A stretch of DNA of 6,866 nt. Source: a virus. The DNA is taken from the IMG/VR virus record IMGVR_UViG_3300017967_000005; one strand, given 5' to 3'. The notes under the pieces are model-generated. The model searched no databases. It worked only from the letters and a program-made list of their open reading frames with translations, and was not told the origin of the DNA. This document shows positions 1-6,866 of this stretch, piece by piece (positions within the stretch are counted from its first letter, which is position 1; each line of letters begins with the position of its first letter). The translations under genes and the position numbers were made by a program.

Positions 1-29
1 ATTTAACATAAAATTACGTTATGCGACAT
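1..29 (-). other. dif-like XerC/XerD site 2, inverted orientation (same sequence as 6744..6772)
   Basis: The reverse complement reads ATGTCGCATAA-CGTAATT-TTATGTTAAAT. The XerD arm matches E. coli dif (GGTGCGCATAA-TGTATA-TTATGTTAAAT) at 11/11 positions. The XerC arm matches at 7/11 (CGCATAA core). The spacer is 7 nt rather than 6. Confidence 0.65.
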
Positions 30-792: not shown

Positions 793-2226
793 ATGACTTA
801 TAAATCTAAATACACAAAGACATATCCAAAAAGTCAGGGCAACACAGAAACTCGCTCAGAAACAACTCTGAAAAAACCTGTACAAAAAACAACCCAAACC
901 CGTAAAAACACGGTGGAAAGCCCTAAATCTGCACAATTCTTCTCAGCAGAATCTAGTCGCCTGACTGATTTTTCTACCCCCATTTATAACATGGGGGTTA
1001 CTACATTGGATCCTCGTCTCCAATACGATGAATTCACCTTCCCTCGTCGCCTAGACAATTGCAAAATGGTTCTCACGGAGAAAGGAAATGTTCCAGTTTT
1101 ACATTCTGTACCATGTGATGAATATGGGATTGCTTCGCACGATTGGATTACTTTTGGATTTTGCCAGTCAACTTTAGGCCAAGAATATTATTCACTTGAT
1201 CCGATGACTGCTGATTCAGAGCTAACCTATGGAATAGAAACGTTTTTAGATCATCATTTGCATGAAATATTCGGCTTTGGTCTTGGTGAAAAACGACAAA
1301 ACGGTATGCATAACTACAAGTTTGCATATGAATTACAAGACAAAATGGGCATGGTTTTATACGGTCATAGCTCTCGTCGTATTTCAATACAAATCAATGG
1401 TACTGGGTGTGCTCTAGCTCGTAAGGGTTGGCAAGTCCGTTTATATCAATACCTCACGTCTTACCAAAAATTTTATGATCCTCAAACAGGTTTCTTAAAA
1501 GAAACTGGCCCACGTGAGCCTAAATTAACCCGCGTCGACCTTGCCTATGATGACTTTGAGGGGCAATACATCACTGTAGATATTGCAGATGAATGGGATG
1601 ATGTAGGCGGATTTTGGTGTGGTGGTCGTCAACCTAAAATCGAAAAGATTGGCCCTTGGAAACGTCCAAACGGTAAAGGCCGTACCTTTGCTGTCGGTGA
1701 TCGCACCAGTGGGAAATATGCACGTTTTTATGAACGTGGAAAAAAAGAGGGTAGTCCTTTAAGCCCTTGGGTACGTGCTGAAGTCGAATTTAAGTCTAAA
1801 GACCGCTATATCCCGCTTGATATTTTGCTTTCTCCGTCTCAGTACTTTTTAGGCGCTTATCCTTGCTTTGAGTGGCTTGCCAAGCAATTAGAAAAAGATT
1901 TTTGCACCCCTGAAAAAACAAAAGTTGTTAAAAAACAATCTGAAATCAGTTGGGATAAAGCAATCGACGTTCTTAAAGTGCAATTCGGAAAATACATTCG
2001 TCAATTTGCCAAAGTGGTCGAACCTCAAGAATTAATTAATATGATTTCATCCGATAAAGATGAAGTTCCAAAACGTCTTAAGTTTTCACACGCTGCTGTC
2101 ATGCAGTCAATTCGTTTAAATCAACACTTTGAAACTAAACCAACATCACTGGAAGAGATGCCACTTTTTGTCGGTAAACCACTGGTGAACATGTCTGCTT
2201 ATAAGGAATTTGTCCATGCAATTTGA
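793..2226 (+). CDS. Rolling-circle replication initiation protein, Rep_trans/RstA-like (477 aa)
   Basis: GAGGG lies 7 nt upstream of the ATG. From memory of the Rep_trans (pT181 RepC / CTXphi RstA) family I recognise three motifs: 'IQINGTGCALAR', 'RVDLAYDD' (1531..1554) and 'ARFYERGKK...WVRAEVEFK' (Tyr codon at 1729..1731). Its position upstream of the ssb and coat genes is typical. Confidence 0.85.
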   Translation: MTYKSKYTKTYPKSQGNTETRSETTLKKPVQKTTQTRKNTVESPKSAQFFSAESSRLTDFSTPIYNMGVTTLDPRLQYDEFTFPRRLDNCKMVLTEKGNVPVLHSVPCDEYGIASHDWITFGFCQSTLGQEYYSLDPMTADSELTYGIETFLDHHLHEIFGFGLGEKRQNGMHNYKFAYELQDKMGMVLYGHSSRRISIQINGTGCALARKGWQVRLYQYLTSYQKFYDPQTGFLKETGPREPKLTRVDLAYDDFEGQYITVDIADEWDDVGGFWCGGRQPKIEKIGPWKRPNGKGRTFAVGDRTSGKYARFYERGKKEGSPLSPWVRAEVEFKSKDRYIPLDILLSPSQYFLGAYPCFEWLAKQLEKDFCTPEKTKVVKKQSEISWDKAIDVLKVQFGKYIRQFAKVVEPQELINMISSDKDEVPKRLKFSHAAVMQSIRLNQHFETKPTSLEEMPLFVGKPLVNMSAYKEFVHAI

Positions 2227-2512
2227 AACAACAATCGTGGTACTGGGTGCTAAAGCCTCTAAGGGTGAATACAACGGCCGACCGTTCGATTCAACCAAAA
2301 TTTTTGCACAAGCTGAATTACAGGAAGGTGAAAACTTCGCTGGTTTCGTTTCTACAGATTACACGTGGGGCACATCGTTCAATTTTGAACGTATTAAAGG
2401 CCTTGAATACCCATTCAAAGCCAAAGCAACCATGAAAAGTGTATCGAACGGCAAAGATTCAAAAACCATCTTGGTTGATCTAGTCCCCGAAAAAACAGCC
2501 CCTAAGGCTTAA
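2216..2512 (+). CDS. Putative ssDNA-binding protein (gpV/RstB analogue), 98 aa
   Basis: The track ORF begins with TTG at 2210. I prefer the ATG at 2216, which has AGGA (2204..2207) 8 nt upstream. The gene overlaps the rep stop (2224..2226). Its size (about 100 aa) and its position directly after rep match inovirus ssDNA-binding proteins. No motif-level confirmation is possible by eye. Confidence 0.6.
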   Translation: MQFETTIVVLGAKASKGEYNGRPFDSTKIFAQAELQEGENFAGFVSTDYTWGTSFNFERIKGLEYPFKAKATMKSVSNGKDSKTILVDLVPEKTAPKA

Positions 2513-2722: not shown

Positions 2723-2962
2723 ATGAATAAAACTTTAAAACAACGTCTTGCTATCGTAAATAGCGAAAACATTGCAACTTATGGCACTGGTGCTGTTGTT
2801 TCTACTGCTCTTATGTCAAGCAATGCCAATGCTCTTGATGTTTCAACCGCTTTAACTGGTGCTGATGCAGAAGCAAACATTGAAACTGGTGCTCTTTGGG
2901 CATTGGGTATCGTGGTTGTAATTTACGGTGCTAAAAAAGTTATCGGCTTCTTCGGTCGTTAA
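2723..2962 (+). CDS. Major coat protein precursor (pVIII-like), 79 aa
   Basis: GAGG (2711..2714) lies 8 nt upstream. A long leader ends in ANA before LD. The predicted 42-aa mature peptide (2834..2959) is LDVSTALTGADAEANIETGALWALGIVVVIYGAKKVIGFFGR. It has an acidic N-terminus, a hydrophobic core and a basic C-terminus (K, K, R), the hallmark of inovirus major capsid proteins. Confidence 0.85.
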   Translation: MNKTLKQRLAIVNSENIATYGTGAVVSTALMSSNANALDVSTALTGADAEANIETGALWALGIVVVIYGAKKVIGFFGR

Positions 2963-3074: not shown

Positions 3075-4064
3075 ATGAAAGCGTTTAAATATTTGGTTTT
3101 TCTTTTTTTCTTTTCAGCTCATGCAAACGCTGACTATTGGACGAATCCATATACTACTTCACGTGCTTCTAGTGCTTCTCAAGCCTGTTCTGATGGCGCA
3201 TCTTTCTTAAATAAGATCGTTCTCGATGTTACTATCAATTCTGCTTCAAGTGCTGCCTCTTGTGCTGTTTCCACTTCTAATGATTCACCCTACGTTTCTT
3301 ATTTTGATGTTACTTTTTATGAAGATGTTGAACCCAAAAAATGCGAAGCTGGAATTGTCCCTGTAACTTTAAAAGTTCCTGTAAGTTCAGGAAAAATGGT
3401 TTGTGTTGATAGCTGTCAATATTCTTTAACAAAGTGTGTTGATGTAGATTTTGAATCAGGTATGACCTGCGATGGTGTTAATGAGGGTCGAGAGTGTGGA
3501 ACACCTCCACCAACAACAACACCAACAACTCCGCCAGTAACCCAAGACCCAACAAACTCAACTGATAAAACTGACGAACAAAAAACATTCGAAAACATTA
3601 TGCATGTTATCGGTGAAAAATTAGATGGTATTAAAGACGCTATAACTGGCGGTAATCAAAATCAGGATGGTGGTGACACTGGCGGATCTAACGGTGGAAC
3701 AACTGGCGGTGACGTAAACGTCAATGTCGATATGTCCGAAACCAATGCCAAAATTGATGAAACCAATTCATTAATTGATGAATTAACCAAATGGCTTCAA
3801 GGTGAAGACTTCGGCGATGACATTTTTGGCGATAGTGAACCACCCGAAAAAGAATTAACCCCACAACAGTTAGACACAAATATATTTTCAGGCCGTGCGC
3901 AATGTCCTCCCGATGCAAGGCTGAGTTTCAATCTATTGGGTGGCAAGACATTTACCAAGACTTTCGAGTTTAAAGACTGGTGTGACAATCTCGAAATCTT
4001 TGGTTCATTAATTCTCATTGCTTCGTATCTCTACGGTGCTTACATCATAGTGAGTAAATCATAA
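3075..4064 (+). CDS. Minor coat / host-adsorption protein, pIII-like (329 aa)
   Basis: GGGGG (3066..3070) serves as SD. The signal peptide is MKAFKYLVFLFFFSAHANA, cleaved before DY. The N-terminal domain has 8 Cys. A Pro/Thr linker TPPPTTTPTTPPVTQDPT spans 3501..3554. A Gly-rich linker GGNQNQDGGDTGGSNGGTTGGD lies at about 3645..3713. The C-terminal domain ends in the membrane anchor LEIFGSLILIASYLYGAYIIVSKS. This is the classic pIII architecture and position. Confidence 0.8.
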   Translation: MKAFKYLVFLFFFSAHANADYWTNPYTTSRASSASQACSDGASFLNKIVLDVTINSASSAASCAVSTSNDSPYVSYFDVTFYEDVEPKKCEAGIVPVTLKVPVSSGKMVCVDSCQYSLTKCVDVDFESGMTCDGVNEGRECGTPPPTTTPTTPPVTQDPTNSTDKTDEQKTFENIMHVIGEKLDGIKDAITGGNQNQDGGDTGGSNGGTTGGDVNVNVDMSETNAKIDETNSLIDELTKWLQGEDFGDDIFGDSEPPEKELTPQQLDTNIFSGRAQCPPDARLSFNLLGGKTFTKTFEFKDWCDNLEIFGSLILIASYLYGAYIIVSKS

Positions 4065-4342
4065 TGCCTGCTATTTTAATCACGATTCTAGCTGCATTTG
4101 CTTCGTCACTCGTGGCAAAGCTAATGCTCGGTGCTGGTCTCGCATTTCTATCCTATACATTCATTAACGATTTAGTCGGTCAAGCTCAATCTGCAATGCT
4201 AGGCCTTTACTCCAATATTCCTGCAAATATCATGGGTATTTTGGGTATTTTAAAAATACCTCAAGCTTTGTCCGTGATTATGTCTGCAATTGGTACAGCA
4301 GCCTTTATTAAGTCATCCAAGCTCGCACTTGGGAAACAATAA
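4064..4342 (+). CDS. Minor coat protein, pVI-like (92 aa, polytopic hydrophobic)
   Basis: It has a TAATG overlap with the pIII-like gene (4062..4066). The protein is very hydrophobic with about three helical segments. Its size and its position between pIII and the assembly ATPase match pVI/Ace-type proteins. Confidence 0.7.
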   Translation: MPAILITILAAFASSLVAKLMLGAGLAFLSYTFINDLVGQAQSAMLGLYSNIPANIMGILGILKIPQALSVIMSAIGTAAFIKSSKLALGKQ

Positions 4343-4384: not shown

Positions 4385-5734
4385 ATGTTTCTCAAGTGGG
4401 GCAATATGGCAATTTTAATTACTGCGCCTTTGGGTACAGGCAAAACCCTCAAAACCATTGAGCTAATCTTTGAATACCTCAACCAAGGCCGTGAAGTTTA
4501 TACCAACATTATTGGCTTAAAAATCACGGGTGTTCGCAATATCGAATCAACGCCCAATGATCCATTTGACTGGCGTGATTTACCGCCTGAATCTGTGCTT
4601 GTCTACGATGAAGCACATGAACATCCTGCATTTTCTGAGCGTGATTTACTCAAAAACCTGAAAAATGAATATTATGAAGATCGTTTAAAAGCAATTCTAA
4701 AAATGTCTGGTCTATCAGATACAAAACGCAAAAGCTTGTATGCTGAGGTTGAAAAAGAATATTCAAAATTCATCAAGGATCGTAAAGAGCAGATTCTAGA
4801 CATTGGCCTAACCATGTCTATGCATCGACACTTTGGGCAAGAAGTTGTTTTAATTACTCAAAACCCAACCAAGCTCAATAAAGATACGCTTTCCAATGTC
4901 ACCATTCATTACGTCATGCGTCGCAAGTTTGGATTTGAAGCTGCCAATATTTGGACATTTGGTGAAGCCATGACAACCTGGGGCAAATCTGTTGCAGATT
5001 CTGCCTTGGTTAAAACCTATTGGAAATTCCCTAAGCATCTATACAAATTTTATGTTTCATCTGAAAAACACAACGTAAAAAAATACTTTCCTAAAAAGTA
5101 TTTTGCTTATGCTTGTATTCCGCTTTTAATCTTCGGCCTTGGCTATTCCAAAGCACGTGAAACTGGTTTCATGGGCTTAGTTCCAAAAGCTGAGCAGGCT
5201 GAACAAATTGAAAAAGTACCAACGGATCTCCCACAAGCTGAAATTGTTAGTTATACACCTGAACAACAAAAACAGATTGATACAAAAAGGGCTGAGTTCA
5301 TGGGCTTAACTTATGAGCAATATATGGATTTACAAAACCCTCAAGCCCAAGATGCCAAAAACTTAGCAGCTAACCAAAATTCAATCGATCAAATTGTAAA
5401 TACTTACAAGGCTGATAATCCATTTGATTATTCATACCTCACACCGCCACCAGTAACCGCACATCGAGTCTTTTCAGGTTGTATGAATGGTGTTGCATAC
5501 GACACACAAGGGACAATTCTCCATGATGCCCCTAAAGACCTATGCAAACGTGTAATGAAAGGCGATAGACCCTTTAACCCCTATAAACAACCTGAACAGG
5601 CAGTAAATTATGAGTATGCATCTGCTAAAGAAAACCCTCAAATACCTAATCATCCAAATCCTCAGGAAATGGTTGAACCGATTCCTTTAGATCAAAAAGT
5701 TTCAAGGGTGATTACTGGAGCGCATTCACTATGA
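4385..5734 (+). CDS. zot: Zot / pI-like morphogenesis (assembly) ATPase, 449 aa (442 aa if translation starts at ATG 4406)
   Basis: The N-terminal P-loop is 'MAILITAPLGTGKT' (Walker A at 4424..4447). Walker B is 'VLVYDEAH' (4595..4618). A single transmembrane segment 'FAYACIPLLIFGLGY' lies at about 5102..5146, followed by a C-terminal domain of about 190 aa. Zot-family proteins normally begin right at the P-loop strand, which favours Met8 (4406). The upstream ATG at 4385 is 23 nt from the AAGGAGG at 4355..4361. Confidence 0.9.
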   Translation: MFLKWGNMAILITAPLGTGKTLKTIELIFEYLNQGREVYTNIIGLKITGVRNIESTPNDPFDWRDLPPESVLVYDEAHEHPAFSERDLLKNLKNEYYEDRLKAILKMSGLSDTKRKSLYAEVEKEYSKFIKDRKEQILDIGLTMSMHRHFGQEVVLITQNPTKLNKDTLSNVTIHYVMRRKFGFEAANIWTFGEAMTTWGKSVADSALVKTYWKFPKHLYKFYVSSEKHNVKKYFPKKYFAYACIPLLIFGLGYSKARETGFMGLVPKAEQAEQIEKVPTDLPQAEIVSYTPEQQKQIDTKRAEFMGLTYEQYMDLQNPQAQDAKNLAANQNSIDQIVNTYKADNPFDYSYLTPPPVTAHRVFSGCMNGVAYDTQGTILHDAPKDLCKRVMKGDRPFNPYKQPEQAVNYEYASAKENPQIPNHPNPQEMVEPIPLDQKVSRVITGAHSL

Positions 5735-5811
5735 ATGAGATCGTAAATGGTGTGATTGTAGGTTTTGGAATTGGTCTTCTGATTCTGTATTTTATGTACA
5801 GGCAAAGGTGA
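5731..5811 (+). CDS. 26-aa transmembrane peptide (MNEIVNGVIVGFGIGLLILYFMYRQR); not in the ORF track
   Basis: It has an ATGA overlap with the zot stop (5731..5734). GGAG (5717..5720) lies 10 nt upstream. It has one Gly-rich hydrophobic helix and a basic tail. Confidence 0.4.
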   Translation: MNEIVNGVIVGFGIGLLILYFMYRQR

Positions 5812-5825
5812 AATGATTCAGTCTA

Positions 5826-6086
5826 TTAGCATCTGAAATTAACAATAACCTTGGTCTTGGTTTTTTTATTATTGAGGTGTTTTTTAATTACACGTTTTGC
5901 TGATTCGCTTTTTGCTTCTTTGTCGCAATACTCTGTGCTATTTGATTTTGATAAGATTTTGATTTCTTCTGTTTTAGTATTGTATTCAAGCTTGTATGTT
6001 GGGTGTTTAGGTTCTAAATCTGATAATTTCAATTCTGTTGCAAATGTATTTGCTGAGATTAGGCTTAGTAAAATTATTCTTTTCAT
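5826..6086 (-). CDS. Small secreted or periplasmic protein (86 aa), accessory (moron-like) gene on the opposite strand
   Basis: It has an ATG start with a weak AAGAG about 9 nt upstream. The N-terminal signal peptide is clear: MKRIILLSLISANTFA, cleaved before TE. The mature part is hydrophilic and Lys/Glu/Thr-rich, with 2 Cys (one is the C-terminal residue). The competing plus-strand ORF looks like its mirror image. The region is markedly more AT-rich than the core genes. Confidence 0.5.
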   Translation of the reverse strand: MKRIILLSLISANTFATELKLSDLEPKHPTYKLEYNTKTEEIKILSKSNSTEYCDKEAKSESAKRVIKKHLNNKKTKTKVIVNFRC

Positions 6087-6228
6087 TCAAATTATCTCTT
6101 GTATTTATAGAGCGAGTGTCTACGAGTGATTCGAGGTTTCGATTTTATGACCATCTTCTCCTTGATTACAAGCTCCCATATATACTTGATCGGTAGGGGC
6201 AGAGCATCCCGAATGGGTGTGAACTGAT

Positions 6229-6429
6229 ATGAGTAATAGACACGTGTATAGCACAATTGCATACAGTAGAAATAAAGGCGTTTTACGCAAAGAAGACTTT
6301 ATTTTTATGCGTGAATGTCTAGAAAAGCATTTAGAAAACATGCAGTTATCTGATTTTGACTATTCACAGCAAATTGATGATTTAAAACAGCTTTTTATTA
6401 AATTGGATCACACAATAAATAGGCTGTAA
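6229..6429 (+). CDS. Hypothetical 66-aa protein, predicted helical and charged
   Basis: It has an ATG start with a weak GGGTG (6215..6219) upstream. Its composition is protein-like (MSNRHVYSTIAYSRNKGVLRKEDFIFMRECLEKHLENMQLSDFDYSQQIDDLKQLFIKLDHTINRL). It overlaps a 73-aa minus-strand ORF (6120..6341) that cannot be excluded. A 26-codon upstream ORF (6147..6227, GAGG at 6133..6136) ends 1 nt before its ATG. Confidence 0.4.
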   Translation: MSNRHVYSTIAYSRNKGVLRKEDFIFMRECLEKHLENMQLSDFDYSQQIDDLKQLFIKLDHTINRL

Positions 6430-6497
6430 TGCCGAACTAGCGGCTTATAACATGCGGGTTACGATTGACTAAATTTGAATCAAAATAGGGTGTTTTT

Positions 6498-6611
6498 ATG
6501 CGAATTGATTTGAATGCTTTAATTTTTGCGTTGGTTCTTTTGGCATTCCAGCCATTTTTGTTTTATGGATTGGCTTATCTATTTTTTCCAAATCTAATCG
6601 GATTAAGGTAA
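6498..6611 (+). CDS. 37-aa hydrophobic peptide (MRIDLNALIFALVLLAFQPFLFYGLAYLFFPNLIGLR); not in the ORF track
   Basis: It has an ATG start with AGGGTG (6487..6492) 5 nt upstream. It is a single long hydrophobic segment. It ends 10 nt before dif-like site 1. It could equally be non-coding. Confidence 0.3.
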   Translation: MRIDLNALIFALVLLAFQPFLFYGLAYLFFPNLIGLR

Positions 6612-6621
6612 AGCTCACGGA

Positions 6622-6649
6622 TTTCGGCATAACGTATATTATGTTCATT
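6622..6649 (+). other. dif-like XerC/XerD site 1 (attP candidate) with canonical 11-6-11 spacing
   Basis: The site reads TTTCGGCATAA-CGTATA-TTATGTTCATT. E. coli dif reads GGTGCGCATAA-TGTATA-TTATGTTAAAT. By hand count the match is 7/11 in the XerC arm, 5/6 in the central region and 9/11 in the XerD arm (21/28 overall). It lies in the non-coding region, and the element has no integrase. Confidence 0.7.
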
Positions 6650-6655
6650 AGGATA

Positions 6656-6697
6656 CTCAGCAACGTGAATATAATTTTACAGATTCACGTTGCTGAG
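6656..6697. repeat. Perfect 15-bp inverted repeat with a 12-nt loop (hairpin A)
   Basis: CTCAGCAACGTGAAT (6656..6670) pairs with ATTCACGTTGCTGAG (6683..6697), and the loop is ATAATTTTACAG. No T-run follows on either strand, so it is not a canonical terminator. It is a candidate ssDNA structural element such as a packaging signal or minus-strand origin. Confidence 0.8.
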
Positions 6698-6730
6698 CTG
6701 TGGCACCAACTAAGGTTGCGTAGGCCACAG
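6698..6730. repeat. Imperfect hairpin B, directly abutting hairpin A
   Basis: CTGTGGC (6698..6704) pairs with GCCACAG (6724..6730). An inner CAAC (6707..6710) pairs with GTTG (6715..6718) around a TAAG loop. Confidence 0.6.
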
Positions 6731-6743
6731 TCTTGGATATTCT

Positions 6744-6772
6744 ATTTAACATAAAATTACGTTATGCGACAT
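6744..6772 (-). other. dif-like XerC/XerD site 2 in its genomic context, 94 nt downstream of site 1 and inverted
   Basis: The sequence is the same as 1..29. Its reverse complement shares GCATAACGTA and TTATGTT blocks with site 1, so the two sites can base-pair in single-stranded plus-strand DNA. Confidence 0.65.
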
Positions 6773-6836
6773 TCGGCTATGAGCCAATAGGGGATTAATT
6801 CTAACTTTTAGAAAGCCTATCCGGAGAATTAGAAAA

Positions 6837-6863
6837 GGGAGTTTTAAAAACTCCCTTTTTTTT
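6837..6863. terminator. Second copy of the bidirectional terminator (same as 94..120)
   Basis: It lies within the terminal repeat and has the identical hairpin plus T8. On the circular or tandem map it would stop plus-strand transcripts leaving the accessory/att region before they run into the convergent regulator gene. Confidence 0.7.
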
Positions 6864-6866
6864 ATC

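Follow-up and report, generated by a model that had tools for sequence, protein, structure and literature searches.

The DNA analysed here (IMG/VR virus record IMGVR_UViG_3300017967_000005, a stretch of 6866 nt hereafter called the window) is a complete circular inovirus with a unit length of 6743 nt. Its positions 6613-6784 are best read as the attachment site (attP) of a temperate, integrase-less phage of Acinetobacter which uses the XerC/XerD-dif system of its host. Members of this phage family are integrated at the Acinetobacter dif site, the phage being inserted between the XerD arm and the central region of the second of its two inverted dif-like sites (6754/6755). The attP region folds into a forked hairpin which, judging from the compensatory changes found among relatives, is under selection. 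The interpretation that we moderately favor is that of a CTX-like folded single-stranded attP recombined by XerD and not by XerC, and the evidence points to a variant of the Xer-exploiting integrative mobile elements (IMEX) that would use the XerD-cleaved strand.

A previous inspection of the letters of the window, referred to below as the sequence-only reading, had proposed a Xer-exploiting attP of the CTX style. Its general part was upheld by the presence of relatives at the Acinetobacter dif and by the covariation of the forked hairpin. The specific mechanism and strand had to be revised, since the junctions described below point to the XerD-cleaved bottom strand and not to the XerC-cleaved one.

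Integration at the Acinetobacter dif site

The attachment sites and the crossover point are located as follows.

6622..6649, plus strand: site 1, 'top strand' of the putative folded dif mimic, TTTCGGCATAA-CGTATA-TTATGTTCATT; XerC-type arm 6622-6632 (TTTCGGCATAA), central region 6633-6638 (CGTATA), XerD-type arm 6639-6649 (TTATGTTCATT)
6744..6772, minus strand: site 2, recombining half, reverse complement ATGTCGCATAA-CGTAATT-TTATGTTAAAT; on the plus strand, XerD arm ATTTAACATAA 6744-6754, central region AATTACG 6755-6761 (7 nt), XerC arm TTATGCGACAT 6762-6772
1..29, minus strand: second view of the same site 2 (terminal redundancy, 1-123 = 6744-6866)
6754..6755, plus strand: crossover point from the attB/attL/attR/attP comparison, anywhere within the shared 11-nt XerD arm 6744-6754

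The two sites are in inverted orientation, 94 nt apart, with the sequences given in the sequence-only reading. The core GCATAA-N6-8-TTATGTT, whose chance expectation in the window is 0.01, is present at both of them and in the redundant copy at 5-24. The sequence 6744-6866 recurs unchanged at 1-123, as a 123-nt terminal redundancy of the circular assembly; the genome is therefore a circle of 6743 nt in which site 2 is present once, not twice.

Searches based on the replication initiator (Rep) place the phage family in Acinetobacter (A. johnsonii, A. tianfuensis, A. bouvetii, A. indicus and others). A 6.2-kb contig filed as Brevundimonas sp., an alphaproteobacterium (L002, NZ_JBMOSL010000023.1), carries a Rep 100% identical to that of the window. 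Every other host is Acinetobacter, and this label is probably the result of assembly contamination. The sites present at the junctions read ATT(T/A/G)CGTATAA-T(G/A)TATA-TTATGTTAAAT and match the published dif of Acinetobacter ADP1, GATTCGTATAA-TGTATA-TTATGTTAAAT (PMC2731167), which establishes dif as the site of integration. Comparison with the host dif also bore out the dif-like character ascribed to site 2, whose XerD arm is identical to the host arm at 11/11 positions and whose XerC arm matches at 8-9 of 11.

The sites attB, attL, attR and attP were all recovered. The junctions combine parts of dif with parts of a dif-like attP, as is characteristic of IMEX. At all right ends, site 1 is intact and is followed by the two hairpins, the XerD arm ATTTAACATAA, the host central region and the host XerC arm (L003, L005, L029, L046). 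At left ends, the chromosomal flank abuts ATTTAACATAA, which is followed by the phage central region and the phage XerC arm TTATGCGACAT (L006, L018, L025, L041). The 35 right junctions examined, all with an intact site 1 upstream, represent 12 variants of the XerC arm and 26 distinct flanks on the downstream side; left junctions numbered at least 9. The window's own type is represented by attL in L018, L006 and L041, by attR in L005 and L046 and by attB in L077, the flank of L018 being 92% identical over 725 nt to the L077 flank that abuts a complete dif.

The cleanest case was provided by a single strain background and a relative whose Rep is 53% identical. The attB (L098) reads flank1-ATTTAACATAA-TATACA-TTATACGAAGC-flank2 and the lysogen (L071) reads flank1-ATTTAACATAA-AATGAAG-TTATGCGACTT-[7.5-kb relative]-site1-hairpins-ATTTAACATAA-TATACA-TTATACGAAGC-flank2, with flank1 100% identical over 1022 nt.

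A number of other loci were discarded. Gaps in the scaffold, insertions of the IS1/IS30/IS5 type and an aberrant right end disqualified L001 (A. johnsonii CIP 64.6) as a clean lysogen. L005, L034 and L054-56 have left ends that are old truncated relics and not junctions. In L044, what resembles a phage-host junction was rejected as such, since it involves a different inovirus that occupies dif's XerC side.

XerC exchanges top strands at the border of the XerC arm and XerD exchanges bottom strands at the border of the XerD arm (PMC4246890; bioRxiv 10.64898/2026.06.12.731946). Insertion at the XerD arm of site 2 thus joins the viral plus strand to the bottom strand of dif, which is the strand cut by XerD, and the position of the junctions fits XerD cleavage.

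Forked hairpin of the attachment region

Folding of 6610-6785 as single-stranded DNA (ssDNA) gave, as minimum free energy (MFE) structure, exactly the forked hairpin drawn in the sequence-only reading, closed by an outer stem that was absent from that description. The parts of the fold outside the two sites are listed below.

6613..6622, plus strand: outer stem, 5' half (GCTCACGGAT), MFE fold; partner of 6771-6784, closing the structure beyond the dif-like sites
6771..6784, plus strand: outer stem, 3' half (ATTCG-GCTA-TGAGC), MFE fold
6649..6655, plus strand: stem extension below the XerD arms, TAGGATA; pairs with 6738-6744
6738..6744, plus strand: stem extension, 3' half; pairs with 6649-6655
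6656..6697, plus strand: hairpin A, first fork prong, 15-bp perfect stem and 12-nt loop
6698..6730, plus strand: hairpin B, second fork prong

The helices of the fold are 6628-6636/6758-6766, 6639-6645/6748-6754 and 6649-6655/6738-6744. The folded dif-like duplex consists, in this order, of the XerC arm, 4 paired central bases, a small bubble adjoining the XerD arm and the XerD arm itself. The energy of the whole 6610-6785 fold is -44 kcal/mol, to be compared with -15.7 +/- 2.7 kcal/mol for shuffles (z-score -10.7; 0/200 as good) and with -41.6 kcal/mol for the slightly weaker fold of the minus strand. Hairpin A may double as a packaging signal or as a minus-strand origin.

The conservation of the fold was evaluated on 15 non-hybrid att regions of diverged relatives, taken only from free phage genomes or from the re-paired ends of one and the same prophage. 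Their consensus structure is the same forked hairpin. In this set, 93.3% of the cells are paired, versus 27-44% when the partners are slid by 1-3 columns, and compensatory changes are found in 24 of the 44 pairs; none of 500 shuffles reached the observed values. The covariation reaches beyond the capping hairpins (compensatory changes in 11/12 pairs of hairpin A and in 4/6 consensus pairs of hairpin B) into the outer stem, the XerD-arm extension and the central pairs. In the outer stem, the variants GCTCA/TGAGC, GCGC/GCGC, GGCGT/ACGCC, GCAA/TTGC and TCTGA/TCAGA occur among relatives; in the stem extension, 4 of 7 pairs are concerned, for instance by replacement of G-C by A-T. The four central-region pairs beside the XerC arms also covary, CGTA/TACG becoming CGAA/TTCG or CTTA/TAAG in relatives. 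The excess of G-T wobbles (41, versus 11 A-C) and the greater stability of the plus strand fold in 14 of the 15 regions point to the plus strand as the folded form.

Left junctions aside, site 1 is present in every lineage having a 7-8-nt site 2. The ATA of its central region, beside the XerD arm, is that of the host dif in 31 of the 35 junction-bearing copies. The XerC-proximal half of the same region never matches the host and covaries with site 2. In arrays made of different phages, the internal att sites are hybrids, which combine site 1 of the left phage with the central region and XerC arm of the right one, and re-pairing the two ends of each individual phage restores complementarity (L029 X/Y/Z).

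Proposed mechanism and rival explanations

The integration pathway that we tentatively propose can be summarized as follows. The plus strand, which would be the packaged one in keeping with general inovirus biology, would fold in such a way that site 1 (top) and site 2 (bottom) form a dif-like duplex capped by the two-hairpin fork. XerC and XerD would bind this folded mimic and synapse it with the chromosomal dif. A single pair of strands would then be exchanged at the XerD position: the plus strand, once cleaved at the end of ATTTAACATAA (6754/6755), would be linked to the bottom strand of dif. Site 1 would offer the entering host strand 5'-TATACA a partner in its central region (complement TATACG), presumably a better one than it offers the resident phage strand, since the latter sits in the bubble. 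Replication would finally turn the pseudo-Holliday junction into a prophage of the structure host flank - XerD arm - phage central region/XerC arm - phage - site 1 - hairpins - XerD arm - host central region - host XerC arm. The host XerC arm and central region would thereby be kept as part of a functional dif, and later arrivals would insert beside it, so that arrays would grow on the XerD side. The far junction, with its spacer of 7-8 nt, is presumably dead.

Several observations weigh against this pathway. XerD normally needs FtsK or a Xaf factor, and none is recognisable in the window phage. The junctions locate the crossover no more closely than the 11-nt XerD arm common to phage and host and the border of that arm, short of a single phosphodiester, and taken alone do not decide between a single-stranded and a double-stranded substrate. 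The covariation proves a selected fold and not its use in recombination; the stem could have a role in packaging or in synthesis of the minus strand. Of the first 3 bases of the phage strand that leaves the bubble, only 1-2 agree with the host central region (AAT, TAG, TTT and TCC versus TAT). Furthermore, in a recurrent aberrant array end, ATTTAAC|TTATGTTCACC, the break falls 4 nt within the XerD arm, and the truncated arm is fused with an arm-like 11-mer. Ends of this kind ('type B') occur in at least 3 species with orthologous, diverged flanks (L001 16123-16143, L028, L045 2949-2966, L059 10875-10892), and the relic of L005 (~7150) breaks at the same base; the corresponding unoccupied form was looked for in all loci and not found. 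The fold is nevertheless favored as the substrate by the co-occurrence of site 1, the covariation of the central region, the dif-like unpaired bases of site 1 and the hybrid att sites of the arrays.

These four points bear directly on a rival explanation, which we regard as unlikely though deserving of attention. Site 2 alone, double-stranded in the replicative form, would be the attP; it would undergo a XerD-first exchange of the TLCphi kind, resolved by replication or by XerC, and the hairpin including site 1 would be a packaging signal, a minus-strand origin or similar. The near-perfect resemblance of site 2 to dif speaks in its favor, as does the 7-nt spacer, reminiscent of the 29-bp VGJ-type attP (PMC4246890). 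The junctions are equally compatible with such a substrate, and hairpins A and B are placed where inovirus intergenic hairpins usually are. Covariation of the central pairs is however not required of a site used only as double strand, and neither the constant association of site 1 with site 2 nor the dif-like ATA kept by site 1 at positions unpaired in the stem is in line with this explanation. The incoming TATACA would moreover face AATTACG in double-stranded site 2, a poor match, whereas on the fold it would face TATACG. Every junction displays the bottom-strand pattern and none shows the other one that exchange of both strands with a heteroduplex spacer would give, and the frequent tandem arrays and mini-elements fit an irreversible CTX-like route. 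A double-stranded attP made of site 1 alone, also considered in the sequence-only reading, is contradicted by the prophages examined, in which site 1 is never split.

Two further explanations carry far less weight. Integration by the phage Rep_trans protein (793-2226) instead of Xer, through nicking of a pseudo-origin in the XerD arm (ATTTAAC^ATAA) of both phage and chromosome, is judged very improbable. Two kinds of aberrant ends, the type B ends and the L005 relic, do break exactly at ATTTAAC^, the arm shares T.TAACAT with the 18-nt repeat (6444-6461 / 984-1001) at which deletion derivatives are joined, and the width of the shared arm, within which normal junctions cannot place the crossover, leaves room for such a nick. 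The target is however always a complete dif and never another sequence containing TAACAT. A full XerC arm, spacer and XerD arm are maintained as a covarying duplex that Rep would not need, and the use of Xer by integrase-less inoviruses is well established (PMC4246890). A true CTXphi-type reaction, in which XerC would cut the top strand of the fold at 6632/6633 in site 1 and yield a prophage colinear with the top strand of dif, has a negligible probability in our estimation. It was the junction predicted by the sequence-only reading, and it would agree with the identical plus strand geometry and with the location of the paired bases on the XerC side of the central region and of the bubble on its XerD side. 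Its predicted attR (TTTCGGCATAA + host central region TRTATA + TTATGTTAAAT) nevertheless gave 0 matches among 2.9 million viral contigs and 241 million metagenome records; the observed junction type gave 25 matches in the metagenome collection alone. As the break lies at the XerD arm of site 2 (6744-6754 | 6755), with site 1 intact in 35/35 right ends, and as the polarity of the prophages relative to dif is opposite to that of CTXphi, this reaction is refuted for the lysogens sampled.

XerD-mediated exchange on the folded plus strand, the pathway preferred here, calls for some means of activating XerD. XerD of A. baumannii does not cleave dif without FtsK-gamma, yet cleaves certain plasmid sites alone (bioRxiv 10.1101/2024.04.09.588662), and this FtsK-free cleavage constitutes a precedent for activation driven by the substrate. 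Searches for a XafT-like protein (DUF3653) among orf66, orf101, orf70, orf37 and orf86 returned no Pfam match even at E <= 10 and nothing in NCBIfam, and no similarity to ORF136 of VGJphi (XafV) was detected by hhalign or BLASTP. The attP is flanked by two small proteins restricted to this phage family, orf66 (6229-6429) and orf101 (428-679), the latter being kept in the mini-elements described below. The AlphaFold model of orf66 is a two-helix hairpin (predicted local distance difference test score, pLDDT, 82) with no meaningful match in BFVD; that of orf101, which probably has 83 amino acids and starts at 428, is helical, of low confidence (pLDDT 65) and gave no structure match. Both are obvious candidates for a Xer activation or regulatory factor.

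Taken together, these elements could form a fourth Xer-exploiting class, characterized by a folded single-stranded attP, the action of XerD on the bottom strand independently of FtsK or a recognisable Xaf factor, an untouched host dif, and prophages and mini-satellites stacked on the XerD side; we consider the case for it to be evenly balanced. To our knowledge, the only known single-stranded IMEX route uses XerC. If the proposed pathway is correct, the hairpin-attP strategy is not restricted to XerC, and FtsK is dispensable for making XerD active on a non-canonical substrate, a question central to the control of Xer. The family would also explain the build-up of arrays on both sides of the Acinetobacter dif and, with its 170-nt region and the compensatory variants that occur naturally in it, provides a well-delimited substrate for in vitro experiments. 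The junction rules allow exact delimitation of these prophages and mini-elements, which current tools merge. Xer sites of Acinetobacter have also been linked to the mobility of resistance genes, so that whatever host factors or features of the site unlock XerD there are of practical interest.

Genome content, arrays and comparison with known systems

All major genes are carried by the plus strand. The principal ones are listed below.

793-2226, plus strand: Rep_trans initiator, RstA-like (Rep_trans 1.2e-20)
2210-2512, plus strand: small protein, size of an ssDNA-binding protein
2723-2962, plus strand: coat-like protein, 79 amino acids
3075-4064, plus strand: pIII-sized protein
4064-4342, plus strand: DUF2523/pVI protein (DUF2523 8e-15)
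4385-5734, plus strand: Zot (1.1e-13)

The domain calls for Rep, Zot and DUF2523 agree with the matching PHROG families. The Inoviridae typically have a small circular genome whose genes all lie on one strand and specify a rolling-circle initiator, a Zot/pI assembly ATPase, a pVI-like DUF2523 protein and small coat proteins; the window phage shows this content. The 10 open reading frames scanned contain no recombinase domain, their only domain matches being Rep_trans, DUF2523 and Zot. The absence of an integrase gene noted in the sequence-only reading is thus confirmed, and the phage resembles IMEX in having no integrase of its own. A megablast search of the whole window against GenBank phages gave no match; the closest GenBank phage proteins are Rep, at ~30% identity.

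Just after attP, a perfect 13-bp hairpin followed by a T run (AAAAGGGAGTTTT A AAAACTCCCTTTTTTTT) is located at 6833-6859 (= 90-116) and is likely a bidirectional terminator between attP and a leftward regulator gene, 119-331. It was missed by a simple terminator scan; the promoter/terminator scan gave nothing useful in the att region, and no Rfam family was found there. An 18-nt direct repeat (TTATAACATGGGGGTTAC / TTATAACATGCGGGTTAC) is present at 984-1001, inside rep, and at 6444-6461, upstream of attP; it may be the Rep nick site.

Tandem arrays are frequent at dif, and short derivatives adjoin full prophages. Several species have, integrated at dif, mini-elements of ~1-2 kb that are joined exactly at the 18-nt repeat and occur singly or as tandem copies (L001 10001-10401, L003 7463-7993, L005 10001-10641, L046, L054-L056, L119 2336-3378). 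Each mini-element contains attP, the regulator module, orf101 and the first 70 codons of Rep, a content that makes them look like RS1-like satellites or miniphages. The array end farthest from dif is an old truncated prophage relic made of a C-terminal fragment of Zot and an orf66 homologue (L005 7150-8983, L034 1741-2190, L054-L056 ~4700-6300). It is common to several genomes and more eroded in some, which fits the entry of new copies always beside dif.

Other inoviruses of Acinetobacter are found on the XerC side of the same dif and in opposite polarity. A phage with a G2P-type Rep (L044 1-7273) has at 110-137 a TLC-like attP, ATTGCGTATAA-TGTATA-ATATGTTAATA, whose XerD arm is degenerate; in a second phage, lying downstream of dif on the XerC side (L077, L071), the Rep_trans shares 40-44% identity with that of the window. 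The dif site is thus sandwiched between two arrays built by different routes, the present family on its XerD side and conventional inoviruses on its XerC side, and this opposite polarity supports the argument drawn from the orientation of the prophages. The dif region of A. johnsonii genomes is also heavily invaded by insertion sequences (IS5-type DDE, IS1, IS30-like, IS3 and IS66), which interrupt prophages and flanking genes such as the VF530 gene (L001 7714-8646, 16605-17306, 20298-21323; L054-L056 3447-4681, 10274-12668).

No description of the attachment site of this phage family was found in the literature. In all three characterised IMEX routes (CTX, VGJ and TLC), dif is rebuilt and the element ends up on its XerC side. 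TLCphi is similar in its XerD-side exchange without a phage integrase, for which an FtsK-independent XerD activity would be required (PMC4246890, PMC6744903). It differs in that its 28-bp attP is double-stranded, its XerD arm degenerate and its central region the same as that of dif, in that XerC performs a second exchange, and in that it has a XafT (DUF3653) gene. The Acinetobacter phage has a perfect XerD arm (11/11), a spacer of 7-8 nt unlike that of dif (TGTATA), a second inverted site with a conserved fold, and no DUF3653 protein detected by the searches described above. As for VGJphi, site 2 is, like attP-VGJ, a 29-bp dif-like site with a 7-nt central region (PMC4246890). VGJphi, however, uses a single double-stranded site, a XerC-catalysed exchange and XafV (ORF136), whereas the Acinetobacter phage has XerD-side junctions, two sites and no detectable relative of ORF136. 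The integron attC x attI reaction offers a parallel in the folded single bottom strand taken as substrate by a tyrosine recombinase, with one exchange and replicative resolution (PMC4792948); it relies on a dedicated integrase, IntI, and on unrelated sites devoid of dif mimicry.

The closest likeness is to the CTX-type group, which comprises the attP(+) of CTXphi of Vibrio cholerae, RS1 and, by sequence, YpfPhi and CUS-1. The CTXphi arrangement was checked directly in NC_015209, where attP1 with a 12-nt spacer is followed, after ~90 nt, by an inverted attP2, in the same plus strand geometry as in the Acinetobacter family. Both are integrase-less inoviruses with an RstA-like Rep_trans initiator and two inverted dif-like sites ~90 nt apart, the 5' site reading XerC arm-central region-XerD arm on the plus strand. 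In both, the plus strand sites fold into a forked hairpin whose central region contains a bubble and whose outer XerD arm has two mismatches, and integration at dif is accompanied by tandem arrays and satellite-like derivatives (PMC4246890); the arrays and short derivatives of the Acinetobacter family resemble the irreversible-integration situation of CTX/RS1. The two systems differ in the strand that is used. CTXphi is cut by XerC on its 5' site, is colinear with the top strand of dif and rebuilds dif at the right from the phage XerC arm (PMC4246890), and the prophage in NC_015209 begins at the XerC arm/central border of the 5' site. In the Acinetobacter family, it is the 3' site that is broken, at its XerD arm, the prophage is of opposite polarity and runs colinear with dif's bottom strand, the host dif remains intact, and the homology to dif lies on the XerD side of the central region, which mirrors the logic of CTXphi. 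On the junctions and sites compared here, the Acinetobacter family is the mirror image of CTXphi.

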